DNA of 64,000 nucleotides from assembly GCA_038044205.1 (NCBI GenBank), contig JBBTAN010000017.1:30027-94026 (forward strand), read 5' to 3'. Under the pieces are notes generated by a model, which was not told the origin of the DNA, did no database searches, and saw only the letters and a list, made by a program, of their open reading frames with translations. A program made the position numbers and the translations under genes. The stretch is from Nanobdellota archaeon (GTDB lineage Archaea > Nanobdellota > Nanobdellia > Pacearchaeales > GW2011-AR1). Below, piece by piece: positions 28,649-55,525 of this stretch; positions within the stretch are counted from its first letter, which is position 1, and each line of letters opens with the position of its first letter.

Positions 28649-29107
28649 ATGAAAGTGCGTTTGACGATTGATTTTGATTTAGGCGACAAATATAATGAAA
28701 AAGATTTTAATTTTTTGGAAGATAGATTACCTAAATATTATTTTTGTGATCCACATAGTAATCTTGCAGAAATGGCTATGGTTAATGGAATTCCTAAAAA
28801 AGATGAAACTATTGAGGATGTTGCTTGTTGTGAAAGTTCTCAAAAACATTACTTGGAAATGGTGCAAATAGCAGATACTGCTACCTGCAAATTTGAACAA
28901 ATAAAGGAGAAGAAAATGGACGCACAAGAAGCATTAAATATACTACGTAGAATAATCCATAAAGTTGATTATGATCATTCTGATATTTTATTCTATAACG
29001 CTAAAGAAGCTGTTGAAATTCTTACAAAAGAAATAAATAAACCAAAATATAAACCTGTTGATAATATTATTATTTCTACACCTACAACTAAATGGAAGAT
29101 TCCCTGA
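28649..29107 (+). CDS. hypothetical protein, family U N-terminus
   Basis: 152 aa; stop TGA 29105-29107 overlaps the ATG of motif 1. Confidence 0.65.
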   Translation: MKVRLTIDFDLGDKYNEKDFNFLEDRLPKYYFCDPHSNLAEMAMVNGIPKKDETIEDVACCESSQKHYLEMVQIADTATCKFEQIKEKKMDAQEALNILRRIIHKVDYDHSDILFYNAKEAVEILTKEINKPKYKPVDNIIISTPTTKWKIP

Positions 29108-29141
29108 TGCCCGGATAGGCATTTCCCTGCCTACTGATTAT
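29107..29141 (+). promoter_or_regulatory. motif-1 element (ATGCCCGGA-N20-GATTAT)
   Basis: exact 9-mer in a TGATG stop-start overlap. Confidence 0.55.
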
Positions 29142-29186
29142 AGATTGAAAATATAGAAAAGTAAGATAAAGAAAGGAGTAAGTAAC

Positions 29187-29885
29187 ATGTTGTCAGTTGA
29201 TAGTAAACAAGTAAATAATAAATGTATTATTTCTGCTGATTTTACAACTAATTGTCCAAGAAGGAGAAATGGAACTCCATGTAAATATTGTTATGTTGAA
29301 TCAAGTAGAAATAATAAATGGAATCCAAAACCAATTTCAGATTATTTGCCTTACACTGGTTGGGTAAAAAGAATAAGAAATCATACAAAATTTAAATTGA
29401 AAAAGGCTGGAGGATTGAGACTTTTTTCCTATGGCGATTACATGCCAGAACATGACAAAGATATTATTTTATTTTTGGACGACTGTTCCAAGTACAATGT
29501 AGACGTAAAGGTAATCACAAAACAGAGAGATTTTATCAAAAAATATCATAATCATCCAGCTATAAAAGTTATTCATATTAGTATAGATAATCTAAAAGAA
29601 AATGGATCTCATGTAAGTCATAAGTCTGCAAGGTTTTATAGAAATAAATATAAAAAAGTATTAGTTAGGTCTGTTGCTTGTAATTGGGATGATGTAAATA
29701 AATTTGGTAAAGCTAAATGGTGTGATATTATTACTTTGAATCATAAAATTATTCCAGGTAAAAGATTTCATTTATTTAGTAAAAATGAAAGGAAAGAAGC
29801 AAATAATATTTATCCAGGGAAGATATGCTGTATTACTAATCATTGTAATACGTGCAAAATTAAATGTAGAAAAAATAAGGAGTAA
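29187..29885 (+). CDS. Cys-rich protein, possible Fe-S enzyme
   Basis: 232 aa; CPRRRNGTPCKYC (Cx8Cx2C) near the N-terminus and CCITNHCNTCKIKC at the C-terminus; function not established. Confidence 0.65.
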   Translation: MLSVDSKQVNNKCIISADFTTNCPRRRNGTPCKYCYVESSRNNKWNPKPISDYLPYTGWVKRIRNHTKFKLKKAGGLRLFSYGDYMPEHDKDIILFLDDCSKYNVDVKVITKQRDFIKKYHNHPAIKVIHISIDNLKENGSHVSHKSARFYRNKYKKVLVRSVACNWDDVNKFGKAKWCDIITLNHKIIPGKRFHLFSKNERKEANNIYPGKICCITNHCNTCKIKCRKNKE

Positions 29886-29888
29886 AAT

Positions 29889-30140
29889 ATGGATTTAATT
29901 AATCCTAAAGGAGCGTTGAGTAAGGAAGAAATTGCACAAGCTATTGCTATTGGGCGACAATTATGGCAGGTAACTGTTACAATTAAAACTTCTGTCTTTC
30001 CTGAAATCTGGTCCGGTCCTCATGTTAATAGTGTGTGGTATAATTATGACGATGCTGAAACCCATAGAAAGTGGTTAAGTAAATGTGAAATGTGTTGGAA
30101 GACAAAGACAGAAGAATATAAGGAAAAGTTAAATGGATAA
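29889..30140 (+). CDS. hypothetical protein
   Basis: 83 aa with SD. Confidence 0.6.
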   Translation: MDLINPKGALSKEEIAQAIAIGRQLWQVTVTIKTSVFPEIWSGPHVNSVWYNYDDAETHRKWLSKCEMCWKTKTEEYKEKLNG

Positions 30141-30405
30141 TATTATATTTGAGAAAAAAGATAATAATTCATTTAGTTTTCATAGTTCGGTTAGTTCTGT
30201 TTGTGCTTTTCCTTTTATAAATATAGATTTAGGTCATGTAGGAGATAAGGAACATGTATTTGTTGAGATTAGACCTTATGATAGCGAAATAAGAATGAGC
30301 ATCAATCTTAATAAACTTGATTTTTTTAATTTAGTTGATAGCTTTAGTCAATTAAAAGAAAAAATTGAAAGTGGTGAAATTAAATGGAAGGAGAAATTAA
30401 CATGA
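30133..30405 (+). CDS. hypothetical protein, family M
   Basis: FPFINIDLGHVGD..SGEIKWKEK. Confidence 0.6.
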   Translation: MDNIIFEKKDNNSFSFHSSVSSVCAFPFINIDLGHVGDKEHVFVEIRPYDSEIRMSINLNKLDFFNLVDSFSQLKEKIESGEIKWKEKLT

Positions 30406-30680
30406 ATGCAGTTTTGAATCAGAAGGGAAAATTTGAATATCAGTTTTATAAGGTTTATAGTAATAATGTTATGTTGCCATTTATCAATTTTCATGTTGGA
30501 TATATTGATGAGGGAGAAGAATGTATTTATATGGAAACTACTCCTATTTATGGTGGAAATAATTATTCTTGTTTGACAAAGAATGAATTTGATATTTATG
30601 TTAAAAGTTTGAATGAGTTTAAATCCAAGGTCGATAGTGGTGAAATTAAGTGGCCTGAAAAGGAAGAAATAAATGAATGA
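30402..30680 (+). CDS. hypothetical protein, family M
   Basis: ATG 30402; LPFINFHVGYIDE..SGEIKWPEK. Confidence 0.6.
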   Translation: MNAVLNQKGKFEYQFYKVYSNNVMLPFINFHVGYIDEGEECIYMETTPIYGGNNYSCLTKNEFDIYVKSLNEFKSKVDSGEIKWPEKEEINE

Positions 30681-30888
30681 AATAACTGACGAAGTAATTG
30701 AAAAATATATTAAAAATGATGGTAAAAATTGTCCTTACTGTGGAAATGAAAATTTAATATTTGGAGAATTAGAATTAAATTCTACATACAATGTAGTTTA
30801 CAGGGATGTGACATGTGGAAATTGTCATAGAAAATGGAATAATATTTTTACACTCACTAATATTGATTATAATCCAAAACAAAAATAA
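30673..30888 (+). CDS. zinc-ribbon protein, family N
   Basis: CPYCGN..CGNCHRKWNNIFTLTNI parallels 56326. Confidence 0.6.
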   Translation: MNEITDEVIEKYIKNDGKNCPYCGNENLIFGELELNSTYNVVYRDVTCGNCHRKWNNIFTLTNIDYNPKQK

Positions 30889-30902
30889 AAAAGAAATAAT
30901 AA

Positions 30903-31061
30903 ATGAATGAAGAAAATACAGTACGCATGAAGGAAGTAGAAGTTGTAGAGTTAGAAGAAGGTGAAATTGATGAAGTTTACAGCATGAATCCTTACAAGAC
31001 TAGGCGAATAAAAATTAAATATTGGGTTAGAAAAAAGAAATTAGTCCCTGTTTATTTTTGA
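30903..31061 (+). CDS. hypothetical small protein
   Basis: 52 aa, checked codon by codon. Confidence 0.45.
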   Translation: MNEENTVRMKEVEVVELEEGEIDEVYSMNPYKTRRIKIKYWVRKKKLVPVYF

Positions 31062-31075
31062 AAGGAGTAAGTAAA

Positions 31076-31342
31076 ATGAAAAATGAAAATCCGTTGGTTC
31101 TTTCAGAAAACAATTGCAAGAATTTGTATAAAGCTATACAAACTAATTTGGACATTTTATGTACTATGTGCGGAGACATACTTCTTCCTGATGAAATGAA
31201 GTTATCAGATACAAGTGCAGATAATTTTAATATTATTGCAGATAGAGCAGGGAAAGCATTAAGTATTTTTGAGGGAAAAGATGATACTAATAAAATTATT
31301 TGGAATAAAGCTAATAGAATTAGGAAAAATAAAAAGGAGTAA
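31076..31342 (+). CDS. hypothetical protein
   Basis: ATG 31076 after SD aaaggagtaagtaaa. Confidence 0.6.
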   Translation: MKNENPLVLSENNCKNLYKAIQTNLDILCTMCGDILLPDEMKLSDTSADNFNIIADRAGKALSIFEGKDDTNKIIWNKANRIRKNKKE

Positions 31343-31347
31343 GTAAC

Positions 31348-31635
31348 ATGGAAAAAGAAACTTGTTCTTCTTGTGGCGCTATAAATTCTTCTTCTGATGA
31401 ATGTAAGGGTTGTGAAGCTCCTACTGTTGGTAGCAGTATCAGGAGAGTTGCGAAAATTGTTAAAGGTTATTGTGGCACTTGTGAGGATAAAGAATCAGAT
31501 ATTCTTGATCTTTTGATTGATATTATGCTTTACTGTAAGGATGATAAGCTGGATTTTGATAAGGTTCTGAAGTCTGCTAATAGACATTACGATGTCGAGA
31601 GCAAGTTTCAGGATAGTTGTGTTTACAAGGAGTAA
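31348..31635 (+). CDS. zinc-ribbon protein, family L
   Basis: CSSCGA..CKGCE..IRRVAKIVKGY. Confidence 0.65.
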   Translation: MEKETCSSCGAINSSSDECKGCEAPTVGSSIRRVAKIVKGYCGTCEDKESDILDLLIDIMLYCKDDKLDFDKVLKSANRHYDVESKFQDSCVYKE

Positions 31636-31638
31636 AAA

Positions 31639-31866
31639 ATGAAAATTGATTTTATTTTTAAAGGTAACAAGGTTTTCCCTGAAGATATAGATAATAAATC
31701 TATTCCTTTACATGATATGGTCGAATATGGAGTGAGTAAATATACAGGAGCAGGTGGTGAGCAATATGTTATTGCTTTGACAAAAGAGTTTGCTGAACAT
31801 TATTGGAGCACTGGAGATTCAAAAGAAATATATTTTGATGATACAATGAGATTTTACTGGAGATAG
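31639..31866 (+). CDS. hypothetical protein
   Basis: 75 aa with SD. Confidence 0.6.
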   Translation: MKIDFIFKGNKVFPEDIDNKSIPLHDMVEYGVSKYTGAGGEQYVIALTKEFAEHYWSTGDSKEIYFDDTMRFYWR

Positions 31867-31874
31867 TTTTCCCG

Positions 31875-31909
31875 ATGCCCGGAAAGAGCGTAGACGGTTC
31901 AAGTATTAT
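31875..31909 (+). promoter_or_regulatory. motif-1 element (ATGCCCGGA-N20-TATTAT-N5-GTGGC)
   Basis: about 70 percent identical over about 50 nt to the 55205 copy. Confidence 0.6.
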
Positions 31910-31960
31910 ATTTCGTGGCCAAAACAGTTAGAAAGTATAATTTAGCAAGGAGAAAGAAAA

Positions 31961-32758
31961 ATGAAAATGAGTGAATGTAACAAGGTTTTTTATTACAAGA
32001 ATTTCAAGACATATCTTCCTGAAGGTGACTATATTATTATTGTTGCTGGAAGACTCTATAAGGGAAAAGATTTTACCCATGCCAATATCGCTGCAAAGCG
32101 TTATGTTGTTCATGAATTTAAACATTACATGAGAAACTATAAAAAATGGACTGCCAAGCCTGGTGTTAATTATTATTTCGCTATTAGGAAATCTGATATT
32201 GAGATGCTGGAAGGTGATGCTTATTCTTATGTTCCTGTTCTTATTGGCGGAGTGAAAGTTATCCTCAATGTTGGCGGTGGATCTGGATTTGAAAAGGACA
32301 TTTGGGAGAACTGGGTTCGAGATGTAGCTGAAATTAGTGTAAATCATCCTATTAAAGATATAAATAAAATTGCCGATATTGCTATTTCACCTTCCAAGTT
32401 TAAGGAACTTGGTATTCCTGATATTACTTTCAAAACTGATAAAGAATCTCTTGAGTATAGGGAAAGAGAAATAAATCATTTTAATGAATTGGTTGCCAAG
32501 GAACTTATTTCTTCTAAATTGGTTGGAATGAAGGTTTATACTCATAATTGGGCTACTTGGCTCAGACCTGAAGGCTCTACTAATATTGAATACTTTGACA
32601 GGGTTGAACGTCCAAAGAATAAAAGAATATTGAAAGGTTATTTGAATGATTATCCTCATGTTTATCATATTCTAAAATATGATTATATTGATTGGATAAA
32701 GACTTGTGAGATGAATGGAGTTAAATTTAATAAATTGGCTATGGAGGTTACTGTATAA
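31961..32758 (+). CDS. hypothetical protein
   Basis: 265 aa with SD. Confidence 0.7.
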   Translation: MKMSECNKVFYYKNFKTYLPEGDYIIIVAGRLYKGKDFTHANIAAKRYVVHEFKHYMRNYKKWTAKPGVNYYFAIRKSDIEMLEGDAYSYVPVLIGGVKVILNVGGGSGFEKDIWENWVRDVAEISVNHPIKDINKIADIAISPSKFKELGIPDITFKTDKESLEYREREINHFNELVAKELISSKLVGMKVYTHNWATWLRPEGSTNIEYFDRVERPKNKRILKGYLNDYPHVYHILKYDYIDWIKTCEMNGVKFNKLAMEVTV

Positions 32759-32770
32759 GGAGAAATAAAA

Positions 32771-33190
32771 ATGGAAATGGATACAGAGCTAAATTATCAA
32801 TATGTTTCTATAGTAATAGAAAAGAAAAATATAAATAATTGTTGGAAAGCTATAGATAGCCTTGACATTTTTGATGAAGTATATAAAGATATTCGTGATG
32901 CTATTGGACAGTTTAGATATGAAGCTATTTTTGAATATGATGATAACAACAATAGGACTGACAATATTTCTATTATAGCTAAACATAATGATTTCAGCGA
33001 AAAAGATGAAAAGTTATTGTCTGCTATTGCTCCATTTGTAAAACCTGATTCTTATGTTATTTTTATGACAGAAGATCAAGTTGCTTGGAAATATACATTT
33101 GAGAAAGGTAAATTAGTTAAATATGTTAGATCTAATGAATGGAATGAAGTTCCAAAAATATGCGAAGTATTGAAATATTTTAGTTTTTAA
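32771..33190 (+). CDS. hypothetical protein, family O
   Basis: 139 aa; ..AWKYTFEKGKLVKYVRSNEW. Confidence 0.65.
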   Translation: MEMDTELNYQYVSIVIEKKNINNCWKAIDSLDIFDEVYKDIRDAIGQFRYEAIFEYDDNNNRTDNISIIAKHNDFSEKDEKLLSAIAPFVKPDSYVIFMTEDQVAWKYTFEKGKLVKYVRSNEWNEVPKICEVLKYFSF

Positions 33191-33204
33191 AAAAGGAGAA
33201 AGAA

Positions 33205-33588
33205 ATGAGTATTCATGTTAATACTTTTATGAGAGTTGTTATTGAAAATAAAAATATAGAAAAATGTTTGAAGGTTATGTCAAAAATTAAAAATGAATGT
33301 TCCGGTATTGATCCTGCAAAAAACAAATATAATGATATAGAGGAAGCATTCAATACATGGGGATATGATTGTTTTATTGAAGAGAATGGAAATGCTGCTA
33401 TAGGGGAGAGGCTTTCTGAAAAGTGGTGGAATGATGATATTCTATGGAAGAAGATTGCTAAATATGTAACACCTGATTCTTTTATTGAGTTTTCTGGAGA
33501 GGAAGGTGAAGAATGGAAGTATATTTTTGGAAATGGTAAAATGATTGAATATGAACGTTCCAAGGAATGGATTAAAAAGGAGAATTAA
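33205..33588 (+). CDS. hypothetical protein, family O
   Basis: IEEAFNTWGYDCFIEENGN..EWKYIFGNGKMIEYERSKEW. Confidence 0.65.
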   Translation: MSIHVNTFMRVVIENKNIEKCLKVMSKIKNECSGIDPAKNKYNDIEEAFNTWGYDCFIEENGNAAIGERLSEKWWNDDILWKKIAKYVTPDSFIEFSGEEGEEWKYIFGNGKMIEYERSKEWIKKEN

Positions 33589-33591
33589 AAA

Positions 33592-33998
33592 ATGAATATT
33601 AGAATTAAAGAAGGGAAAATGGTTATTCACAAAATATTTGAAGATAGATGTCTCGATATCCTTAGTAGAAACTATGGCCTTATTCTTGTATTGAGGAAGC
33701 TTTCGCATCTTTAGGATATATAATTTTTAGAGATAATGATACGGGGCATATTGTTGTAAACAATAGAATTGTTGGTCCTTGGCGTTCAGATGAGAATATG
33801 TGGCGTATTATTGAGTCATATATCATAAAAGGTAGCTATCTTATTTTTATTGGAGATAATGGGAAAGTATTTCAAATCGCTTATGAGAATGAGAAAATAG
33901 TTGAATATGCACAATATTCTGATTGGGAGAAAATTACAAAAAACTGGCAAAAGAAAATATGGTTTGATTGGAGAGAAAAGTCAACAACTCCTGCCTAG
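33592..33998 (+). pseudogene. family O paralog split by a frameshift
   Basis: the N-terminal 40 codons from ATG 33592 stop at TAG 33712; the homologous remainder IEEAFASLGYIIFRDNDTG..KIVEYAQYSDWE is in the -1 frame, open from 33669. Confidence 0.6.
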
Positions 33999-34048
33999 AG
34001 GTAGATATTTTTTATAGAAAATAATTATTAAAAAAGGAAAATTAAAAA

Positions 34049-34735
34049 ATGCCAACTATAATGAAAAGAAAAGGAAATAAGGTTAGGACTGATGATTATG
34101 TTATCACTGTTCCTAATGATCATTCAGGTATTTCTATTGTATGCGACAATAGAGTTGATGATGGTGATGATTTTAGAACTGATGGTTATGTGTATAATAA
34201 AAATAAAAGAATAAGGAAATGGTTGTCTAATTTGCAACAGTTTAAAATTTGGCATCCAGTATATGAAAATATTGAAACACTGGAACAACGTAGGTATAAA
34301 GTTGCTTGTAGATGTAATATAAAAATGAATACTTCTTGGGCAAATATAAATAAAAAGTTTAAAGGGGATGTAAGTGGTATTTACAATAATAATACTTTTG
34401 TAATTGTTAAACATGATGATTACCTTTCATCTTATTCTTTTGAAAACTATATTTATACTCATAAAAGAATGGCAAAGAAAAATCAAAAGTTAGTTGATGA
34501 GTATTTTGCTGCGGAGATTAATTTTGATAAATGGTCAAGATGGAAGGCAGTATTTAATGTTTCTTTTATTCATGCTATCAATAAAAAATATGAAAATGAA
34601 ATAAGGAAAATGAATAAAGAAGGTAGATTTGTTTGCAAAATGGATATAAATGGTAGAACTTATTGGTTTAATCAAAGAGATAATTATCTTTCTGAATTGG
34701 CTTATCCAGAAAATATTATTAATTTTTCTTTGTAA
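34049..34735 (+). CDS. hypothetical protein
   Basis: 228 aa with SD. Confidence 0.7.
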   Translation: MPTIMKRKGNKVRTDDYVITVPNDHSGISIVCDNRVDDGDDFRTDGYVYNKNKRIRKWLSNLQQFKIWHPVYENIETLEQRRYKVACRCNIKMNTSWANINKKFKGDVSGIYNNNTFVIVKHDDYLSSYSFENYIYTHKRMAKKNQKLVDEYFAAEINFDKWSRWKAVFNVSFIHAINKKYENEIRKMNKEGRFVCKMDINGRTYWFNQRDNYLSELAYPENIINFSL

Positions 34736-34757
34736 CTAAAAGAAAGGAGTAAGTACA

Positions 34758-34982
34758 ATGGTTCCTAATCATATTTGTGAGTATTATAAAGTTACTAATG
34801 AATCTATGCAGAATATTTATAGATCTTATGGAAAAGTTATTGATAGTATTACTGATCTTAATTCTGCAGTTATCAATCATCCAACTATGAGTTGTGGAAG
34901 AAAAAATAAAATTGACAACAATATTGCAGAAGCTATTAAATTACTTCAGGATGTATTTGGAGTGTATTCGAGACAGAAGTAA
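34758..34982 (+). CDS. hypothetical protein
   Basis: 74 aa with SD. Confidence 0.6.
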   Translation: MVPNHICEYYKVTNESMQNIYRSYGKVIDSITDLNSAVINHPTMSCGRKNKIDNNIAEAIKLLQDVFGVYSRQK

Positions 34983-39219: not shown

Positions 39220-39242
39220 AATATAGAAGGAAATTTATTTTC

Positions 39243-39277
39243 ATGCCCGGAAGGGGCAAGGAATGGACAATTATTCT
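39243..39277 (+). promoter_or_regulatory. motif-1 element (ATGCCCGGA-N20-TATTCT)
   Basis: its reading frame runs 25 codons and ends in an ATGA overlap with ATG 39317. Confidence 0.55.
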
Positions 39278-39316
39278 CAACTGTCAAGGAATACTTGTTG
39301 GTTGGAAAGGAGAAAA

Positions 39317-39610
39317 ATGAAAAAAGATATTCTAATGTCTGGTATAGATACTCTTCATCCAAGTGATGTTCGAACTAATACTTATTATGTTCTTGCTAAT
39401 GATACTGGTTCGAAAATTAAATTTTTATATTATTTTATAGATAATAAAATTGAATCTGGTAATTTTAATTATTATAAATGTTATATATTCCCTACTATAG
39501 AATCTATTAAAGATTATATTTATGATCCAAAAAATAAGTTGAAGGACTATAAACCAGTGCAAGTTACAGAAGAACAGATTAGAAATTTTTCTTTTAAATG
39601 TAAGGAGTAG
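39317..39610 (+). CDS. hypothetical protein, family P
   Basis: ATG 39317 after SD ggaaaggag; YYVLANDTGSKIKFLYYF..IRNFSFK. Confidence 0.6.
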   Translation: MKKDILMSGIDTLHPSDVRTNTYYVLANDTGSKIKFLYYFIDNKIESGNFNYYKCYIFPTIESIKDYIYDPKNKLKDYKPVQVTEEQIRNFSFKCKE

Positions 39611-45387: not shown

Positions 45388-45582
45388 ATGACTATTGATC
45401 ACTGTAAGGAAATGATTGAGAAGTATAAGATAATTAATCCTGAGCAGGCTAAGGCTTATCAGGAAGTTATTAATGATGCTAATTTTATTGCTTGTAATGG
45501 TAATAATTTTACTACATTGAATCAGCTTAATACTATTATTGTTAAAAAGTATAATAAGGAGAAAGAAAATGAAGGAATTTAG
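45388..45582 (+). CDS. small protein, family W
   Basis: IINPEQAKAY. Confidence 0.55.
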   Translation: MTIDHCKEMIEKYKIINPEQAKAYQEVINDANFIACNGNNFTTLNQLNTIIVKKYNKEKENEGI

Positions 45583-45772
45583 GGTTAGCTGGGAAATTGA
45601 CATTGATGCTAATAGTCCTTATGAGGCTGCTAAAGAGGCTTTTAAAATTATGCAAGAGCCAGGATCTTCTGCTACATTTTTTGAAGTTACTTCACCTAAA
45701 GGAAATAAATATCAATATGATCTTGAGTATGGTGATGATGATAATAAAGATAATTATGATGAGAATGGTTGA
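45569..45772 (+). CDS. hypothetical acidic protein
   Basis: ATG 45569 after SD aaggagaaagaaa; stop TGA 45770-45772 overlaps the motif-1 ATG. Confidence 0.6.
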   Translation: MKEFRVSWEIDIDANSPYEAAKEAFKIMQEPGSSATFFEVTSPKGNKYQYDLEYGDDDNKDNYDENG

Positions 45773-45806
45773 TGCCCGGAATGATAGAAAACTGGCGTTC
45801 TATTAT
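45772..45806 (+). promoter_or_regulatory. motif-1 element (ATGCCCGGA-N20-TATTAT)
   Basis: followed by hairpin acgccaaa-tgg-tttggcgt (45815-45833) abutting the SD; its frame ends in an ATGA overlap with ATG 45849. Confidence 0.6.
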
Positions 45807-45848
45807 AGTTTGTAAACGCCAAATGGTTTGGCGTAAGGAGAAAGAAGA

Positions 45849-46091
45849 ATGAAAATTTTCAATGTTATTTCTGTTAGTTATGATGCTGACGATAAGCAAC
45901 CTACACTTGAACTTGTTTATCCTTACAGTAGTTTGGAAAATGCTAGAAAGAAGTTTTACGCTCTTGTTAGGGAAAGCGAACCTGATATTTCTGATAACGA
46001 TTTGAAACTTCTTTCCAAAGATCGTAAATATATTTATCAAGATGAAGATTGTGTACTTTTTATTGATTCTAAAACTATTGACCAGTATTAA
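45849..46091 (+). CDS. small protein, family C
   Basis: MKIFNVISVSYDA..SEPDISDNDLKLL. Confidence 0.6.
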   Translation: MKIFNVISVSYDADDKQPTLELVYPYSSLENARKKFYALVRESEPDISDNDLKLLSKDRKYIYQDEDCVLFIDSKTIDQY

Positions 46092-49086: not shown

Positions 49087-49099
49087 TATATTTTTTCTG

Positions 49100-49134
49100 A
49101 TGCCCGGAGACGATTTGGACCCTGTTCTTATTAT
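49100..49134 (+). promoter_or_regulatory. motif-1 element (ATGCCCGGA-N20-TATTAT)
   Basis: the hexamer abuts the ggag of the next gene's SD. Confidence 0.55.
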
Positions 49135-49146
49135 GGAGTAGAAAAC

Positions 49147-49272
49147 ATGGTAGTAAGAACACCAAAAGAAAGAGAATATAAAGGTATAGCAGGTATTATT
49201 GCTCCTATTATATTTTTTGCTTTAGTTATTAGTATGTTTTTTATATCTTTTATTAAAGTTATTTTCACTTAA
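49147..49272 (+). CDS. small membrane protein
   Basis: 41 aa, checked codon by codon. Confidence 0.45.
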   Translation: MVVRTPKEREYKGIAGIIAPIIFFALVISMFFISFIKVIFT

Positions 49273-49289
49273 CAAAAAGGAGAAATCAA

Positions 49290-49466
49290 ATGGCAAAAGA
49301 AATTATCAAAAACAGTCCCAAGGAAAAAGAATTTGCTATTCAATGTTTTATTGATGGTCAAAGAGTTCAAACCCATAAACTAAATAAAGAAGAAGCTGCT
49401 AATTTTATTGTTACTGCAAAGCATTTAATTGATTATTTGTCTAAAGAATATGGAATTGAAAAATAA
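49290..49466 (+). CDS. hypothetical small protein
   Basis: 58 aa, SD aaaaaggag. Confidence 0.5.
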   Translation: MAKEIIKNSPKEKEFAIQCFIDGQRVQTHKLNKEEAANFIVTAKHLIDYLSKEYGIEK

Positions 49467-49598
49467 GTAAATAAAAAGGAAAGTAAAATGAATAGAAAGA
49501 CAAGAGAAGAAATTATATTAAAAATAGCTAAAAGTTTAGGTTTTGATACTTTTGAACCAATTCCTGAAAGATGTTCTGATTCAACAAATGATTATTAA

Positions 49599-49758
49599 AT
49601 GTCAGAAATTTATGCAGATGAAATTAAAAAAAGCATTGGAATCTATTTATGATTTAGGTTATCAAGAAGGTGACAGTGACGGTTATAGATTAGGTTATTT
49701 GGAAGGTAAAGGAGGTTTCCCAGATAGACATAAAATCTACGTTACAGGATATATTTAG
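49599..49758 (+). pseudogene. small protein split at an A7 run
   Basis: MSEIYADEIKK (ATG 49599) joins ALESIYDLGYQEGDSDGYRLGYLEGKGG.. only if aaaaaaa at 49626-49632 is read as six A. Confidence 0.4.
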
Positions 49759-49780
49759 ATATAAATAAAGGAGAATAATT

Positions 49781-49930
49781 ATGCCAGATGAAATTAGTGG
49801 TGCGGATAAAATAAGACCAGATAAAAATAAAATAAATGAACAAGTAAATAAAAAGAAAAGGAAAATATGTAAGGATTTTGAAAATAATTTATTTAATTTA
49901 TTGAAAAAAGTAGATAAGGAGAAAAAATGA
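49781..49930 (+). CDS. hypothetical small basic protein
   Basis: 49 aa with SD; ATGA overlap with the next gene. Confidence 0.45.
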   Translation: MPDEISGADKIRPDKNKINEQVNKKKRKICKDFENNLFNLLKKVDKEKK

Positions 49931-50145
49931 GTGATAGTAAAACTTCTGTAAAATTTAATTTAAGTGGTTCATTTTGCACTTTGCTAACTATTCTTTTTAT
50001 TGGATTAAAATTAACCAATTATATTACATGGAGTTGGATTTGGATTCTTTCTCCTTTATGGATTCCTGTTAGTTTTTGTATATTAATTCTTTGTGTGATT
50101 GGTCTAATTTGTTGGTCAGAGGATAAGAAAGAGAAAAATGAGTAA
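49927..50145 (+). CDS. two-TM membrane protein, family Q
   Basis: LFIGLKLTNYITWSWIWILSPLWIPV. Confidence 0.65.
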   Translation: MSDSKTSVKFNLSGSFCTLLTILFIGLKLTNYITWSWIWILSPLWIPVSFCILILCVIGLICWSEDKKEKNE

Positions 50146-50380
50146 AAAGACAAAAGAATATTCAGTTAGTATTGATTTCTGCGGTCTATTATGTTTACTT
50201 TTTATTGCTCTAAAACTAACTAATTATATTGATTGGTCTTGGATTTGGGTATTGGCCCCTATCTGGATACCAATTACTATTGTATTATCAATTACCGCCA
50301 TGTTCTTTGGAGTAATGGGAATTGTTATATTTTTTGTTTATTTAACTGAAGTTATTGCTAATAATAAAAGGAATAAGTAA
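50138..50380 (+). CDS. two-TM membrane protein, family Q
   Basis: LFIALKLTNYIDWSWIWVLAPIWIPI. Confidence 0.65.
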   Translation: MSKKTKEYSVSIDFCGLLCLLFIALKLTNYIDWSWIWVLAPIWIPITIVLSITAMFFGVMGIVIFFVYLTEVIANNKRNK

Positions 50381-50559
50381 TGAAAGATAGAAAGTGCCCA
50401 AGACAAGGATTTTTAACAACTCCTGAATTATGCGCTCAAAGAAGAGCAAGAGATTTTGATAGATGTAAAATTTGTAAACATAGAAAAGAATATGATGAGG
50501 AAGATGCTAAAATAAGTGCTGAAGTTAAGCCGCAAGAAGAAAACAAAGAAAAGGAGTAA
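50380..50559 (+). CDS. hypothetical small basic protein
   Basis: 59 aa, checked codon by codon. Confidence 0.5.
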   Translation: MKDRKCPRQGFLTTPELCAQRRARDFDRCKICKHRKEYDEEDAKISAEVKPQEENKEKE

Positions 50560-50564
50560 GTAAA

Positions 50565-50813
50565 ATGATTGTTTCTATTGTTCATCTTGATATTAAAAAT
50601 GGTTTTCCTGTAGTTGAAACAATTTATACATATGAAAATAAAAATTTAGAAGATTTAAAAGATAAATTTTTTGCAACAATTAAAAAGGATGACCCAAATA
50701 TAAGCCCTGAAAATTTAGAAAAATGCCTGAACTCTTTATATTACCAATATAAAAATAATAATAAATCTATTTCTTTACATTGGCATTTTGTTGAACAGGA
50801 AGTGCGAACGTAA
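50565..50813 (+). CDS. small protein, family C
   Basis: MIVSIVHLDIKNG..DDPNISPENLEKCL. Confidence 0.6.
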   Translation: MIVSIVHLDIKNGFPVVETIYTYENKNLEDLKDKFFATIKKDDPNISPENLEKCLNSLYYQYKNNNKSISLHWHFVEQEVRT

Positions 50814-50834
50814 CAAAGAAAAGGAGTAAGCAAC

Positions 50835-51071
50835 ATGAAAGTTATTTCTGTTTTTACTATTGGACATTGTGAAGGAAAACCTGTTATTGATAATTTTTAT
50901 TCTTTTGAAAACGATGATATTTACGACGCAGAAAGAATGTTTTTTGATTTATTGAAAAAAGACAATGAAAATATCAGACATGAAGATATTGCTGCACATA
51001 TTAGAAATGGACTTTATGATTGTAAAAATGGTGATACTATTTTTATCAATACATCTTCTATTGAGAAGTAA
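50835..51071 (+). CDS. small protein, family C
   Basis: MKVISVFTIGHCEG..DNENIRHEDIAAHI. Confidence 0.6.
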   Translation: MKVISVFTIGHCEGKPVIDNFYSFENDDIYDAERMFFDLLKKDNENIRHEDIAAHIRNGLYDCKNGDTIFINTSSIEK

Positions 51072-51093
51072 ACAAAGAAAAGGAGTAACTAAC

Positions 51094-51546
51094 ATGGAAG
51101 TCAAGGAACAAGTTAGAAAGTTTGAATGGAATGAATTTGATATTATTCAGAATCAAGCCAAATTCTTGATGGAAGAAGAAAATATTGATGAAAAGAAAGC
51201 ATTTGATATTACTTGCGAAGACCCTGATCTTATTTCTTTTGAATGGGATTCTTTTCTTGATATGGTTACAGAAGAACTAAAAGAAATGAATCCAGGTGGT
51301 GATTGGGCTTGTAATGTTAAGGGGTTTGGTTGGCGTAAACTTGATGGGCATACTTATTTTAATGCCAAGGATGCTAAAGAATTTTTTAGTAAGATTCTTC
51401 CTGATTGCGAATGTAGATTTATTATGAATATTTTTCCTTGTGAAAAAACTATTTCTATTAACAATTTTCACCATGACTCGCCTTATGGTGAAGAATGGTA
51501 TTATTTGGAACCTGTCTTTTTTAGCGAGGAAAGTAAAAATGAATAA
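51094..51546 (+). CDS. hypothetical protein
   Basis: ATG 51094 after SD aaaggagtaactaac. Confidence 0.65.
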   Translation: MEVKEQVRKFEWNEFDIIQNQAKFLMEEENIDEKKAFDITCEDPDLISFEWDSFLDMVTEELKEMNPGGDWACNVKGFGWRKLDGHTYFNAKDAKEFFSKILPDCECRFIMNIFPCEKTISINNFHHDSPYGEEWYYLEPVFFSEESKNE

Positions 51547-51745
51547 AACAGACAATGCGCTCCATCTTGCTAATACAGGGCATTATACAATGGAAATGTT
51601 CTGGGAAAGAATGACAACTAAAGAATGGAAACTTATTCTTTTAGATGGTAATGATAAAATTTGCTGTCATGGAGTTCCTCGACAGTTAGTTGCAAAGAAG
51701 TTAGGTTGTGGCATTGTTGAAGTAAGGAAAGCACCTTTGGAATAA
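51539..51745 (+). CDS. hypothetical small protein
   Basis: ATG 51539 overlaps the previous gene's end. Confidence 0.5.
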   Translation: MNKTDNALHLANTGHYTMEMFWERMTTKEWKLILLDGNDKICCHGVPRQLVAKKLGCGIVEVRKAPLE

Positions 51746-51761
51746 AGAAAGGGAAATAAAT

Positions 51762-52970
51762 ATGTCTTCTTCTCTTATTGTTCCTGTCTGTCGCATTAAA
51801 AATAATAGAGAGCATCCTAATGCTTCCCTATTGGGTATTTGTGATGTCCTCGGATATCAAATGGTCGTCCCGCTCAAAGAGGCTCCTGATGGTCCTATTG
51901 CACGTTATTTTAAAAAGAATATGGTAGATGATAAGGGTAAGAAGATTCCAACTAATCAAGATGATCCTGAAGCTGAAGTTATTAATTTGGATTTTATGTA
52001 CCCAGAAGATAAATTAGTTGTATATTTCCCTTTCGACACTATTCTTTCTTCTGAATGGGCTTGTAAATTTGGTGTTCAATCTCTTCTCAAAGGTGCTAAT
52101 AATGATAGAGTAGGAAAGATTAAACTTAGAGGCGAACCAAGTTTTGGACTTGTTGTTGATATTCCTGAAGGTGTTGACTGGCAAGAAGGAACTAATGTTG
52201 CTGATTACTATGGCGCTATTAAATATGAACCGCCAGTTAGACAAATTTGTGGTGATGCTCATTATGCGGACCCTGATATTGATCCTTTCTTTGAAAAATT
52301 TACTGATGTTCAGAATGGTAGAATTTATACTGATATTTTTGAAGACGGTGAAGAAATCATTGCTACAGAAAAGTTGCATGGGTGCAACGGAAAAGTAGCG
52401 CTTATAAATAATAATTATGTTGCTGGTTCAATGAATCATAGAAGGAAGCGTCCAGTTAGGATGGAAGGTGAAAATGTTATTGAATGTTCTTTTGATGATA
52501 AGGAAATGAAAGAAAATATATATTGGTTTCCTTGGACTGTTTCTACTGTTAGGACAATGATGGAAAGTATAAAAAATATGGGGAATATTGTTCTTTATGG
52601 TGAGATTTATGGAGGGAGTATACAGAGTCTTACTTATGGAATTCCAAAAGGTAAAGGATTAGGATTCAGGGCTTTCGGACTAACAGTAAATGGTAAGTAT
52701 ATGGACTGGGACGATTTTGAATCAACTTGTAAAAAATATGGAGTTGATATTGTTCCTGTTATTTATAGGGGGCCATTTAGCATGGCTATTGCTAAACAAC
52801 ATGCTAATGGAAAAACTACTCTTACTAAAGATGGACAAATTAGAGAAGGAGTAGTTTGCTATCCAGTAAAAGAAAGAACAAATTCAAGGATTGGTAGATG
52901 TATACTGAAATATATTTCGGATGAATATTTACTTTCCAAACATCAAGATAATGACACAAAGGATATTTAA
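51762..52970 (+). CDS. ATP-dependent RNA ligase with N-terminal OB-like domain (Rnl5/DraRnl-like architecture)
   Basis: N-terminal VCRIKNNREHPNASLLGICDVLGYQMVV; motif I TEKLHGCNG (KxHG); later YGEIYGGSIQ, REGVVCYPV and ILKYIS in ligase motif order. Confidence 0.75.
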   Translation: MSSSLIVPVCRIKNNREHPNASLLGICDVLGYQMVVPLKEAPDGPIARYFKKNMVDDKGKKIPTNQDDPEAEVINLDFMYPEDKLVVYFPFDTILSSEWACKFGVQSLLKGANNDRVGKIKLRGEPSFGLVVDIPEGVDWQEGTNVADYYGAIKYEPPVRQICGDAHYADPDIDPFFEKFTDVQNGRIYTDIFEDGEEIIATEKLHGCNGKVALINNNYVAGSMNHRRKRPVRMEGENVIECSFDDKEMKENIYWFPWTVSTVRTMMESIKNMGNIVLYGEIYGGSIQSLTYGIPKGKGLGFRAFGLTVNGKYMDWDDFESTCKKYGVDIVPVIYRGPFSMAIAKQHANGKTTLTKDGQIREGVVCYPVKERTNSRIGRCILKYISDEYLLSKHQDNDTKDI

Positions 52971-52994
52971 ATAAAAAATAATAAATAAATCAAT

Positions 52995-53020
52995 AGGGGG
53001 CTTCTACAGCCCCTTATTTT
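52995..53020 (+). terminator. rho-independent terminator-like hairpin
   Basis: aggggc-ttctaca-gcccct followed by tatttt. Confidence 0.6.
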
Positions 53021-53042
53021 AATTGATAGTATATTTTCTCTC

Positions 53043-53077
53043 ATGCCCGGAGCAAATCGCTCTCAATGCCCTATTAT
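53043..53077 (+). promoter_or_regulatory. motif-1 element (ATGCCCGGA-N20-TATTAT)
   Basis: motif 2 follows 16 nt later. Confidence 0.6.
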
Positions 53078-53093
53078 TCGTTATAGGCCAATT

Positions 53094-53131
53094 CCAATTG
53101 ATCCGAATAAACATAATTTTCTTTTTATTAT
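53094..53131 (+). promoter_or_regulatory. motif-2 element (CCAATTGATCCGA-N19-TATTAT)
   Basis: the hexamer abuts the SD gaaaggag of ATG 53147. Confidence 0.5.
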
Positions 53132-53146
53132 GAAAGGAGAATAAAA

Positions 53147-53518
53147 ATGAAAATTTCAACATGTAATGTAAAATTAAATGGAGTAAGGTCGATAACGAAT
53201 AAAATATTAAAAGAATATGATTTGCCAGACATTAAAAGTATCAATGAAGGAGATTGTTATCGTTGGGCATGGGGATTTTACAAAAAATACGGTGGAACTC
53301 TTTGCACTGTAAGTTTCTATAATTATGGATTTGGTCATGCTTTCATTAAAATAAATAATAAATATTATGATGCGGAAAGTCCTAATGGAGTAAAGGATTG
53401 GAGAAATTTAAAATTATGGCCCAATGCTCCTATATCCGAAAGACAATATAATAATTTAAAAAATAAAAGAGTAATGAGAATGACAGTTGCTGAATATAGA
53501 AAATTTTGGGACTTTTAA
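53147..53518 (+). CDS. hypothetical protein, possible Cys-His peptidase-like fold
   Basis: GDCYRWAWGF..GFGHAFIKINNKYYDAE pattern; weak. Confidence 0.6.
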   Translation: MKISTCNVKLNGVRSITNKILKEYDLPDIKSINEGDCYRWAWGFYKKYGGTLCTVSFYNYGFGHAFIKINNKYYDAESPNGVKDWRNLKLWPNAPISERQYNNLKNKRVMRMTVAEYRKFWDF

Positions 53519-53530
53519 TGGAGGATAAAA

Positions 53531-53983
53531 ATGTCTATTACTTTTGATAAATCTATTGAGAATAAAGTAATAGAAATGTTAGATAGAGGACCAATTGATC
53601 TTATTATTTCAAGGATTTTAGAAGTATGGAATCCTTTTGATATATTAATGAGTAAAAATTTAGAAGAAGTTAAAATTGATGTATTGCACTATATAAAAAA
53701 CAAAGATTTCCAGAGAAAATATTTAGAAAATATATTTGGTTTAAATGAAAATTATATTAGAGATCTTAATTATGATATTCGCAGAATAGCTTGGTTTGTA
53801 TATAACGGTTGGGAAGATGCTGTAGATATTGATGTTGGCATAAATGGATTTGATACCAGATTTATTTGCCATGACGGCAATCATAGGTTGTGTGCGGCAA
53901 TAATAAAAGGAGATAAGACTATTAAAGCAAAAGTTAGTGGAGGTTGTGATATTATTTCTTATTATTGTGGATTAGTTGACTAA
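53531..53983 (+). CDS. ParB/Srx-like nuclease-domain protein
   Basis: FICHDGNHRLCAAIIKGDKTIKAKV matches the DGxHR core of ParB-like nuclease domains. Confidence 0.6.
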   Translation: MSITFDKSIENKVIEMLDRGPIDLIISRILEVWNPFDILMSKNLEEVKIDVLHYIKNKDFQRKYLENIFGLNENYIRDLNYDIRRIAWFVYNGWEDAVDIDVGINGFDTRFICHDGNHRLCAAIIKGDKTIKAKVSGGCDIISYYCGLVD

Positions 53984-53995
53984 AAAGGAGAATAA

Positions 53996-54277
53996 ATGAA
54001 TAAAAATTATTATGATATTCGTATTTCTATTTTATTGGAAAAGAAAAATAATATAAATGATATTATTTTTATATTAAATAGATTTTGTTCTGATTTTTCT
54101 TCAAAGGAGACAGAAGAGGGATTGGTTGTCAATTTTAAATCATTTCCCAGTTATTTAGAAGATAAAGATATTGCCACTGGGTTGAAGGATATTATTTTTG
54201 AGACTAATGGTAAACCTTGTAAAATTGAGATGATTTTTATCCATACTAAACAAGTAGAAAATAATTTCTTTTTCTAA
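53996..54277 (+). CDS. small protein, family D (1 of 6)
   Basis: YYDIRISIL..NGKPCKIEMIFIH. Confidence 0.6.
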   Translation: MNKNYYDIRISILLEKKNNINDIIFILNRFCSDFSSKETEEGLVVNFKSFPSYLEDKDIATGLKDIIFETNGKPCKIEMIFIHTKQVENNFFF

Positions 54278-54287
54278 AGGAGAAAAA

Positions 54288-54581
54288 ATGAATAAATTTT
54301 ATAGAATTCATATTACTGTGAAAGATTTGCCAAAAGATAGAATTTCTATTATTTTTGATAAATTGCAGGAATATCACTGGTCTTTTTGCTTAAACGATGA
54401 TGATATTTATCTTGATAAAGATATTTGTTATATATATTATTATACAGTAGAAGATGTATCTATTGTATATCCTCCTGAAGCTACCGAAGAAACAATTAAA
54501 ACAAGATTGAAAAATATTATAACTAATGATAATAAATATTTTTATGAGATAAATATCGTTTTGGAACAATGCAGTTGTTAA
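54288..54581 (+). CDS. small protein, family D (2 of 6, most divergent)
   Basis: FYRIHITV..; same size and position in the array. Confidence 0.55.
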   Translation: MNKFYRIHITVKDLPKDRISIIFDKLQEYHWSFCLNDDDIYLDKDICYIYYYTVEDVSIVYPPEATEETIKTRLKNIITNDNKYFYEINIVLEQCSC

Positions 54582-54603
54582 AACAAAAAAGGGAATAAAT
54601 AAA

Positions 54604-54888
54604 ATGGACAAAAATGAATATGAAGTTTCTATTGATATAGAATTTGAAGAAAATGATCGCGAAATAAGTATTGGATGTGCTTTAAAAAAGATTAGTAAAA
54701 CTTTTGCTTTTTATGGCGGGAATAATAAATTTAGAGCTTTCTCTATGTATGTAGAATCATATTTACTTGACCATGAACTTGCTGAATCAATTAAAAATGC
54801 TGTTTGGGACGCCAATAGAAGAAAATGTAAAATTGATATTAATATTTCTCATAGAGTATATAATAATTTTTCTTATGAAAGTAAATAA
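54604..54888 (+). CDS. small protein, family D (3 of 6)
   Basis: EYEVSIDI..NRRKCKIDINISH. Confidence 0.6.
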   Translation: MDKNEYEVSIDIEFEENDREISIGCALKKISKTFAFYGGNNKFRAFSMYVESYLLDHELAESIKNAVWDANRRKCKIDINISHRVYNNFSYESK

Positions 54889-54902
54889 AAAGGAAAATAA
54901 AA

Positions 54903-55205
54903 ATGAGAACGACTTTCAATATTGATAATATTCATAATTATGAAATAAGTATTGAAACTAAAGATGATATTCAATTTGACTTTATTTCAGAATCATTGAA
55001 GAAGTTTGGAAAATTTTATAGCAATAAATATAAAGATAATTTTGGAGGAAATTGGTATTCTGAAGGGATTTATACAGATCTTACAAAAGAGAATTTGCTT
55101 AAAGATATACGACAAACTATTTTTACTGCAAATAATCAATCTTTTGCTGTGGATATTATGATTACGTTCAATGTTAGAGAGACATATAGCTTTGATTCTT
55201 GGTGA
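54903..55205 (+). CDS. small protein, family D (4 of 6)
   Basis: NYEISIET..NNQSFAVDIMITF; stop TGA overlaps the motif-1 ATG. Confidence 0.6.
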   Translation: MRTTFNIDNIHNYEISIETKDDIQFDFISESLKKFGKFYSNKYKDNFGGNWYSEGIYTDLTKENLLKDIRQTIFTANNQSFAVDIMITFNVRETYSFDSW

Positions 55206-55239
55206 TGCCCGGAAAGAGTTTGTACAGGGTAAGTATTAT
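55205..55239 (+). promoter_or_regulatory. motif-1 element (ATGCCCGGA-N20-TATTAT-N5-GTGGC) embedded in a coding start
   Basis: exact 9-mer; the same nucleotides encode MPGKSLYRVSIIYCGK of the family D gene. Confidence 0.5.
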
Positions 55240-55525
55240 CTATTGTGGCAAAATTATGGTTAAAGGTGCAGATGAAAAAATGATTGGTGATATTTTTTCT
55301 AATTTGAAAAATTATATTACTTCCATCAATATGAATGAAACTAAATTTGGATTATATTTTTATGCTAATAAGTTCTCTACGGAATTTGATAAAAAACAAT
55401 TGTCTGAACTTCTTTATTGTAGAATCAATAGTATCAATGGAAAACCCTGCGATATTGAATTTTTTATTTCTCATAGTATTACAGATAGGTTTTATTTTCC
55501 TCTCCCTCAAAAGAAAGAAAAATGA
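55205..55525 (+). CDS. small protein, family D (5 of 6), apparently starting on the motif-1 ATG
   Basis: the homologous N-terminal strand LYRVSIIY (compare HYRVSVRII in 55809) lies upstream of the internal ATGs 55256 and 55280; NGKPCDIEFFISH. Confidence 0.55.
   Translation: MPGKSLYRVSIIYCGKIMVKGADEKMIGDIFSNLKNYITSINMNETKFGLYFYANKFSTEFDKKQLSELLYCRINSINGKPCDIEFFISHSITDRFYFPLPQKKEK

Follow-up and report, generated by a model that had tools for sequence, protein, structure and literature searches.

Genes of the window and copies of the repeated motif

The stretch of DNA analyzed here (hereafter the window) consists of 64,000 nucleotides (nt) of contig JBBTAN010000017.1, a contig of 499,814 bp (ENA ERZ1292626, Hain_H43_01um_R3_3) from the 0.1 µm size fraction of a Hainich groundwater metagenome, of which 84 kb was read. 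The window is 86% coding with nearly all of its genes on the + strand, and ~165 of the 171 called genes (~97%) have a GGAG-type Shine-Dalgarno (SD) sequence 5-9 nt upstream. In the gaps between these genes, and in one case across a gene start, a nine-base motif recurs (ATGCCCGGA) that can be read as a start codon followed by codons for proline and glycine. A first-pass annotation of the window proposed that the motif may be a conserved, possibly leaderless gene 5' end that had spread by recombination and, as the fallback, that it is a promoter and codes only by chance at one site; the evidence presented below favors the fallback.

Twelve exact copies of the motif are present in the window, all 12 on the + strand, compared with an expectation of 0.13; when the window sequence was shuffled, none of 100 shuffles contained 12 copies and the maximum ever reached was one. 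With both 10 kb flanks of the source contig added, the 83.5 kb scanned contain 16 exact and two one-mismatch copies, and all 18 are on the + strand. The seven sites noted earlier in the range then considered are real, as is every coordinate given for them, and the window holds further copies at positions 11002, 11810, 20404, 22402, and 61335; copies in the flanks include those at -4484, 64163, and 68674 (in window numbering). Both one-mismatch copies, of which that at 23767 reads ATGCCAGGA and the other, upstream of the window, ATGCCTGGA, alter the third base of the proline codon (CCT, CCA). The pentamer CCCGG is found 13 times in the window, 12 of them within the motif. The repeated 9-mer is a real and highly non-random signal at the level of the DNA.

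The placement of the copies relative to genes is equally uneven. Twelve of the 13 window copies are fully intergenic, with an overlap of at most one base with a stop codon (P = 7e-10), and the same is true of 17 of the 18 copies overall, including all three in the downstream flank; the two upstream flank copies are situated in a divergent gap, where minus-strand genes end and the long + strand block starts. The next SD-led open reading frame (ORF) begins 47-234 nt past the window copies, and nine of the 18 copies lie 74-86 nt ahead of it. Strong hairpin and T-run terminators are found 25-60 nt upstream of the copies at 53043, 61335, and 68674, which are the only three of the 18 with such a structure within 90 nt upstream.

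Architecture of the element and its interpretation

The position profile of the 12 window copies demonstrates that conservation extends beyond the 9-mer on both sides (positions are relative to its A). A T-rich tract at -9 to -5, often followed by CTG, stands just before the invariant ATGCCCGGA, the next base is a purine, and a spacer of 20 nt (21 nt in one copy, 22402) leads to the hexamer TATTAT, which is matched in at least five of six bases at 20 ± 1 nt in 14 of the 16 exact copies. Within the hexamer, A-T-T at +30 to +32 is kept in 11-12 of the 12 window copies; a pyrimidine-purine step follows at +39/+40, 5-6 nt past the hexamer, and the block 5-14 nt past the hexamer is weakly conserved, often as TATTGTGG or AGTAGAAA. 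Pairwise identity among copies is at the random level in the spacer (0.29, with 0.296 expected), rises to 0.47 in the block comprising the hexamer and start region, and drops again to 0.32-0.34 beyond +51, from which it follows that the element is ~60 nt long with two fixed blocks. The spacer is free in sequence and distinct in composition, with a G+C content of 46% versus 28% for intergenic DNA (P ~1e-13 over all 18 copies; e.g., 55214-55233). Some copies form sub-families that are alike in the spacer and start region (55205, 31875, and -4484; 49100, 61335, and 68674; 22402 and 11810), with the best pairs reaching 57-69% identity over 42 nt in addition to the 9-mer. A search against Rfam matched only tRNAs, and an RNA or hairpin element was rejected because folding of each copy gave z-scores near zero and no fold common to the copies.

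We consider it quite probable that this phage-like genome of ~500 kb and 29% G+C has a two-part promoter of its own, with ATGCCCGGA as the upstream recognition element. In the proposed arrangement, the T-rich tract just upstream would occupy the position of an UP element, the 9-mer would lie at about -41 to -33 and be read by a sigma factor or activator, the 20-nt spacer would be free in sequence and raised in G+C, and TATTAT would act as the -10 hexamer, with a purine ~6 nt farther on as the likely transcription start. Transcripts would begin ~40 nt downstream of the A of the 9-mer and carry a leader of ~35-45 nt with a strong SD to the next gene. Since such transcripts would start past the ATG of the 9-mer, the Met-Pro-Gly reading and the short ORFs that run on from it (mini-ORFs) would be by-products, translatable only on read-through transcripts; the stop-start overlaps and mini-ORFs are most likely by-products of an ATG-containing promoter placed tightly between genes. 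Motif statistics, strand, spacing, genomic context, and the lack of coding signatures are the grounds on which the identity of the promoter, the position of its start site, and the reading of the 9-mer by a sigma factor or activator are proposed.

Several observations weigh against a promoter. A spacer so rich in G+C is odd for one, the 9-mer is unlike TTGACA and ends 20 nt rather than 17 nt from the hexamer, and two of the exact copies (11810 and the first copy upstream of the window) have a poor -10 hexamer. A weak nAnnnT pattern is present 6-11 nt 5' of the ATG in nine of 12 copies, according to our reading of the sequences and the profile, and keeps a little room for a start at the ATG itself. 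For 10 of 17 copies, the ATG of the motif and that of the next gene are separated by a distance of 2 mod 3 (P = 0.027), a bias that other intergenic ATGs do not have, and seven of the ten distances in the 74-86 nt range differ by multiples of three. Members of sigma factor, polymerase, or activator families were not found among the 150 window proteins and the flank genes, which cover 84 kb of ~500 kb, and no related genome with the ATGCCCGGA motif was found in the viral, genome, and metagenome collections scanned.

A second motif class

The window has no excess of sigma-70 consensus matches (114, 133, and 118, versus 119, 116, and 128 in shuffles). Besides words derived from SD sequences, the enriched intergenic 8-mers that contain G+C fall into two families only, namely the ATGCCCGGA motif (class 1) and TGATCCGA, the latter with eight window copies versus 0.64 expected. 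Downstream of the class-2 motif, CCAAYTGATCCGA, stands TATTRT, in most copies at a distance of 19 or 24 nt; a motif scan placed this motif on the + strand of the window at 1924, 7550, 11940, 12396, 20464, 28062, 39187, and 53099, and in the flanks at 72068 (+ strand, segment L165) and -8879 (minus strand, segment L167). Class-2 copies are co-oriented with the genes around them, and the sole minus-strand copy is inside a minus-strand gene block. The two classes occur in tandem at four sites (11810/11940, 20404/20464, 39187/39243, and 53043/53099), and together they are found in 17 of the 50 intergenic gaps of at least 60 nt in the window. The CCAAYTGATCCGA motif is probably a second promoter class. 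Large phages possess temporal promoter classes that have the same -10-like hexamer and different upstream blocks, and, by analogy, the two classes in this genome, with a common -10-like hexamer and a differing upstream block, may be of a similar kind.

Individual copies of the class-1 element

All class-1 elements described here are on the + strand. The element at 10992-11043 (9-mer 11002-11010) is intergenic with TATTTT 20 nt on and stands 118 nt before the SD-led gene at 11120. At 11800-11851, an exact 9-mer (11810-11818) is combined with the poor -10 sequence CATTCC (3/6), and this intergenic element is followed by the class-2 motif at 11940. The intergenic element at 20394-20445 (9-mer 20404-20412, 20 nt, TATTAT) is in tandem with the class-2 motif at 20464 ahead of gene 20521, and that at 22392-22444 (9-mer 22402-22410), likewise intergenic, has the sole 21-nt spacer, followed by TATTAT, and is located 85 nt before gene 22487. 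The one-mismatch copy within the window (element 23757-23808, with ATGCCAGGA at 23767-23775) has the -10-like sequence CATTCT and lies in an intergenic gap 83 nt before gene 23850.

The elements in the middle of the window differ chiefly in the hexamer and in what follows it. At 29097-29148 (9-mer 29107-29115), the -10 sequence is GATTAT, the mini-ORF has three codons, and the next gene is at 29187; at 31865-31916 (9-mer 31875-31883, 20 nt, TATTAT), the mini-ORF has 18 codons and the next gene is at 31961. The element at 39233-39284 (9-mer 39243-39251) has the -10-like sequence TATTCT, a class-2 motif 56 nt upstream (39187), and the next ATG at 39317, and that at 45762-45813 (9-mer 45772-45780, 20 nt, TATTAT) has a 26-codon mini-ORF and the next gene at 45849. 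The copy at 49090-49141 (9-mer 49100-49108, 20 nt, TATTAT) is followed directly by GGAG and a doubtful 41-codon ORF at 49147, with the next called gene at 49290. Two copies stand behind terminators: the element at 53033-53084 (9-mer 53043-53051, 20 nt, TATTAT) begins its 9-mer ~25 nt past a hairpin terminator at 52993-53017 and precedes a class-2 motif at 53099 and gene 53147, and the element at 61325-61376 (9-mer 61335-61343, 20 nt, TATTAT) lies 27 nt past the hairpin terminator that follows the ArdA gene (61287-61307), with the next gene at 61414.

The predicted leaders of two copies contain a short hairpin right past the predicted start site, AAACGCCAAA..TTTGGCGT in the leader after the 45772 copy (45807-45848) and CGAAGA..TCTTCG in that after the -4484 copy (positions 5455-5496 of L167). 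These hairpins may be 5' stabilizers.

The copy within the family D array

The remaining window copy (element 55195-55246, + strand; 9-mer 55205-55213, 20 nt, TATTAT at 55234-55239, then CTATTGTGG) is the sole copy inside coding sequence and a full-consensus match. It overlaps the stop of one member of a paralogous family, family D (gene 54903-55205, + strand, whose TGA stop at 55203-55205 overlaps ATG 55205 by one base), and the first 14 codons of the next member (55205-55525, + strand), which has 106 codons from ATG 55205 and in-frame alternative starts at TTG 55199, GTG 55202, and TTG 55220. Family D comprises six paralogues of 93-106 residues, at 53996, 54288, 54604, 54903, 55205, and 55809 (window 53996-56099), and a profile search among 5.8 billion proteins found no homologues outside this genome. 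Alignment of the paralogues bears out the earlier description of the 106-codon frame as a real member of the family.

The start of this gene differs between annotations, with the public annotation giving 89 residues from ATG 55256 and a metagenome gene caller giving 106 residues from 55205. All six family D N-termini consist of a methionine, two to five residues, and Y-x-[IV]-x-[IV], and the 55205 member has L-Y-R-V-S-I-I-Y as the corresponding strand, encoded ahead of both internal ATGs (55256 and 55280). Structure modeling from the six paralogues, with modest confidence (predicted local distance difference test score 68.7), gave a beta-alpha-beta-beta-alpha-beta order in which residues 10-19 form strand 1; Foldseek returned generic ferredoxin-like folds only (E ~3e-3). 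A start at 55256 would delete strand 1, and the model predicts misfolding of the resulting 89-residue form; alignment and model favor the longer form beginning at 55205. As first proposed, it is very likely that the gene begins at or just after 55205 and not at 55256 or 55280, and the likely start codon is ATG 55205 itself (in a TGATG overlap and without an SD), with TTG 55220 behind a weak GGA/AAGAG as the less likely candidate.

The spacer and TATTAT do encode the strand LYRVSIIY, as the earlier reading had it, with a contribution from the block just past TATTAT. The division of labor between DNA and protein is visible along the element: M-P-G, which is variable, comes from the 9-mer, the conserved Y-R-V-S from the free spacer, and I-I-Y-C-G-K, six inserted residues that four of the five paralogues do not have, from TATTAT with the following block. 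Over +9 to +50, the intergenic copy at -4484 and the 55205 copy are 69% identical, and this identity ends at ~+50. The similarity to the 31875 copy, put previously at ~70% over ~50 nt, amounts to 67% over +9 to +50 plus an identical 9-mer and ends at the same border, which indicates that 31875 is a sister copy of the putative promoter; the suggestion that it is a decayed 5' gene fragment was rejected because the similarity stops at the edge of the element.

The copy at 55205 would be a genuine case of a promoter threaded through a gene start. It would span the junction of the two family D genes, with its own ATG, or the TTG five codons later, doubling as the start codon. Transcripts initiated near 55245 would lack the start of the 55205 gene, and the embedded promoter would serve mainly gene 55809 and those beyond it, because the intervening gene at 55522 has no SD and overlaps the stop of the 55205 gene as ATGA. 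This gene (55522-55794, 90 codons) is one of only two or three window genes without an SD, and it probably depends on translational coupling.

Evaluation of translation from the motif

The arrangement that first suggested a coding function is present. The ORFs at 28649-29107, 45569-45772, and 54903-55205 end in the TGA of TGATGCCCGGA; the mini-ORFs span 3-33 codons (rather than 3-32); and the mini-ORF stops at 39318-39320 and 45850-45852 overlap, as ATGA, the ATGs at 39317 and 45849. Two further stops had been described as falling shortly before a gene start, and one of them stands (the 53043 mini-ORF ends 2 nt before ATG 53147), whereas the other, that of the 49100 mini-ORF 5 nt before 49147, precedes a 41-codon ORF of doubtful gene status, absent from the gene calls of the source collection. 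The flank copies add an ATGA overlap at -4484 and a TAATG overlap at 64163, giving totals of three upstream stop-start overlaps, four downstream overlaps (39243, 45772, -4484, and 64163), and one more stop 2 nt short.

The numbers of such overlaps are not above chance, and the coupling of mini-ORFs to downstream genes is not upheld. As a control, pseudo-ORFs were constructed with the stop-free first ~12 codons of the motif built in; 16-21% of them stop within -6 to +3 of the next start, compared with four of 11 observed (P = 0.08-0.18), and the two ATGA overlaps have P = 0.12-0.14. The mini-ORFs have a median of 20 codons versus 10 for other out-of-frame ATGs (P = 0.014), a difference that arises because the 9-mer, the G+C-rich spacer, and the in-phase TATTAT keep the first ~12 codons nearly stop-free; beyond these codons, mini-ORF lengths look ordinary. 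Upstream, TG stands directly 5' of the 9-mer in six of the 12 window copies, so that TGATG belongs to the motif and upstream genes merely run up to it. In the 11 copies outside the range first considered, the phase is right in five and overlaps number two (P ~0.3 and 0.24 by our binomial estimates), neither of which is significant.

The codons themselves also speak against a coding role. CCC is the rarest proline codon (19 of 484, 3.9%) and is not the second codon of any called gene, and the 12 invariant CCC triplets therefore cannot reflect selection for proline; the earlier view that the invariance of CCC and GGA signals selection on the nucleic acid rather than on a protein is borne out. 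No copy has an SD before the ATG of the 9-mer, again as first noted. Mean conservation by codon position over +9 to +50 is 0.53, 0.58, and 0.46, with no relaxation of the third position, and codon periodicity in the conservation among copies is absent. The mini-ORF peptides are alike only in M-P-G and in an I-I that results from TATTAT always being in the same phase. A conserved gene 5' end does not fit these data, nor the intergenic location of 17 of the 18 copies.

Origin of the genome and search for relatives

The 84 kb contains small orphan genes in one orientation, four tRNA genes, hairpin terminators, and 29 matches to PHROG families, and amongst the encoded proteins are ClpP, ArdA, DUF932, an RNA ligase, ankyrin-repeat proteins, a pilin-type N-methylation motif, and TnpB. 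Together with the SD ahead of ~97% of genes, this content speaks for a bacteriophage of very large size, or a similar element, whose expression signals are of bacterial type, and the Nanoarchaeota label of the bin is probably a binning artefact. The tRNA genes (Leu-TAA at 2627-2717, Lys-TTT at 6510-6586, Met-CAT at 13478-13556, and Ile-TAT at 15152-15223) all read either AUG or codons ending in A or T, in keeping with a low-G+C phage that supplements the tRNAs of its host. The TnpB-type gene (OrfB_IS605 or Cas12f-like; L167 8744-9826, minus strand) is just upstream of window position 1, inside the + strand block. Small zinc-ribbon proteins (CxxC...CxxC, 71-96 residues) occur in seemingly paralogous pairs (30673-30888 with 56326-56568, and 26731-27021 with 31348-31635); they account for weak Pfam matches to TFIIB-type zinc ribbons and are not TFB homologues.

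Searches for relatives returned little. A near-identity search of a phage collection found nothing, and assemblies of the same phage from other sequencing runs were identical and thus offered no population variation. With the RNA ligase as the query, a protein search gave distant matches only (≤28% identity); its closest homologues, 54-61% identical, are on contigs of ~50% G+C that do not contain the motif, and the RNA ligase gene is thus not a marker of relatives. The DUF932 protein had no match in the viral collection, and none of 80 viral ClpP loci has the motif. Scans for the motif itself produced 41 single chance matches in the viral collection, at least 118 matches in the genome collection (single chance matches only among those listed), and, with a stricter 20-base pattern, 16 matches in metagenomes on unrelated contigs of 35-59% G+C. 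No PHROG family includes the genes directly after the putative promoters, and a literature search for the 9-mer retrieved primers only.

Alternative explanations

A real, possibly leaderless translation start, from which Met-Pro-Gly mini-ORFs would be translated and coupled to the next gene, and which would have been copied around the genome as a gene 5' end, is a very unlikely account of the 9-mer. Copy 55205 does begin a real gene, three upstream genes end in the TGA of TGATG, four mini-ORFs overlap the next start with one more 2 nt short, the 2 mod 3 phase (10 of 17) has no counterpart at other intergenic ATGs, both one-mismatch copies are synonymous for proline, and the -10-like nAnnnT stands 6-11 nt 5' of the ATG. 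The ATG, however, has no SD where ~97% of genes have one, each downstream gene has a strong SD of its own, CCC is the rarest proline codon and never a second codon, the peptides share only M-P-G and a forced I-I without codon periodicity, and the overlaps and lengths fall to chance once the stop-free motif is allowed for, with no significant excess in the 11 copies not used before. Such a start would also leave the fixed 20 nt to TATTAT and the conserved block after the hexamer unexplained, and the likeness of 31875 to 55205 ends at the element border. A related possibility, just as improbable, is that on read-through transcripts the AUG of the 9-mer is used by terminating ribosomes or independently of an SD, and that the mini-ORFs relay ribosomes through AUGA or UAAUG overlaps; selection for such a relay across a promoter-bearing gap would fix the phase of the promoter with the downstream gene, with the 9-mer serving on its own transcripts as a promoter only, yet both halves of the relay are present at 45772 alone. 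The small probability left to translated mini-ORFs derives from the phase bias, the four overlaps, and the synonymous one-mismatch variants.

The other alternatives concern what the element does as DNA. The promoter could at the same time be a mobile regulatory cassette resembling the PeSL sequences of T4-type phages, in which case small genes would be shuffled when copies recombine, one such event having given the 55205 gene its present 5' end; the sub-families with common spacer and start-region sequence, the long run of small orphan genes and paralogue arrays in the window, and the six-residue insertion formed by TATTAT and the following block would agree with this. It is nevertheless an unlikely addition, given that the best pairs (57-69% over 42 nt plus the 9-mer) are too little for homologous recombination, that only three of the 18 copies adjoin a strong stem-loop terminator, that no related genome was found in which element-bounded insertions or deletions could be seen, and that the Y-R-V-S encoded by the 55205 spacer matches the paralogues, as expected if the gene kept its own 5' end rather than had it replaced. 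If the host were an archaeon, as the name of the bin in the source record (Nanoarchaeota archaeon) and the weak matches of small proteins to TFIIB-type zinc ribbons would have it, TATTAT could be a TATA box used by TBP and TFB and the 9-mer an upstream activator site. An archaeal B recognition element (BRE) abuts the TATA box, whereas the 9-mer is 20 nt from the hexamer; the conservation 5-14 nt past the hexamer fits a bacterial start site and not one ~23 nt away; the hexamers of copy 49100 and of class-2 sites 20464 and 53099 have an SD or ATG within 15-26 nt; the zinc-ribbon proteins, at 71-96 residues, are not TFB; and the hairpin and T-run terminators, ClpP, ArdA, the type IV pilin-like N-methylation motif, and the many PHROG matches all make archaeal transcription highly improbable. 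Least credible of all is a strand-specific DNA site apart from transcription (e.g., a Chi-like recombination signal, a point of nicking or packaging, or the target of a replication or partition protein), for which the restriction of all copies to one strand and the near absence of CCCGG elsewhere (12 of 13 in the motif) could be cited. Sites of this kind do not shun coding sequence, as 12 of 13 window copies do, keep no fixed distance to a -10-like hexamer, and are not found at the front of a gene block or in the gap that separates a terminator from an SD-led gene.

Significance and comparison with known systems

The two-part promoter proposed here provides a usable transcription map for part of an uncultivated genome of ~500 kb that has no annotated relatives, and the case shows that what looks like a family of tiny genes can be a short DNA signal containing ATG. 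It also corrects a likely start-codon error in the public annotation of the 55205 gene, where the same bases offer a clear instance of a promoter combined with the 5' end of a coding sequence, in which the variable parts of the protein absorb the fixed blocks of the promoter. The view of phage transcription is unchanged unless the reader of the 9-mer proves to be unusual.

Phage-specific two-part promoters, which are read by a phage sigma factor or activator, include the middle and late promoters of Bacillus phage SPO1 and the T4 middle promoters, which consist of a MotA box and a host-type -10 hexamer. The element resembles these in having a conserved upstream block unlike that of the host at a fixed distance from an A+T-rich, -10-like hexamer, in the many copies that follow gene orientation and occupy intergenic gaps in early or accessory blocks, and in the presence of more than one motif class per genome; it differs in that the upstream block ends 20 nt from the hexamer (compared with ~12 nt for the MotA box and ~17 nt for a -35 box) and in the G+C-rich spacer. 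To our knowledge, the consensus ATGCCCGGA-20 nt-TATTAT matches no known phage promoter. Relative to sigma-70-type promoters, TATTAT is a 5/6 match to TATAAT with a purine ~6 nt downstream, and the T-rich tract at about -50 to -46 coincides with the site of the distal UP subsite, whereas GGA and variable bases take the place of a TTGACA-like hexamer at 17 ± 1 nt. Internal promoters embedded in coding sequence are familiar from phage and bacterial operons, and at 55205 the same DNA is likewise both promoter and codons; unlike these, the 55205 promoter extends across a stop-start junction and probably supplies the start codon with its own ATG, and the protein appears to accommodate the constrained blocks in a variable N-terminus and a six-residue insertion.

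Amongst repeated intergenic elements of phages, the start-associated sequences (SAS) of Cluster K mycobacteriophages are 13-bp repeats that contain AGGAG and are located 3-7 bp before the start codon (PMC3203893). Both are short asymmetric repeats with nearly all copies in one orientation that are confined to non-structural genes of one phage group and have been considered in relation to gene starts, but the repeat described here contains ATG, has no SD core, and precedes the next SD-led ORF by 47-234 nt. The PeSL promoter-terminator cassettes of T4-type phages (PMC2839356, PMC4122927) are similar as repeated, promoter-bearing intergenic elements among small variable genes, a few of the present copies being joined to a terminator, and differ in that most copies here have no stem-loop and that identity between copies is low. 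The kind of element is thus well known, and its consensus and 20-nt geometry are new.

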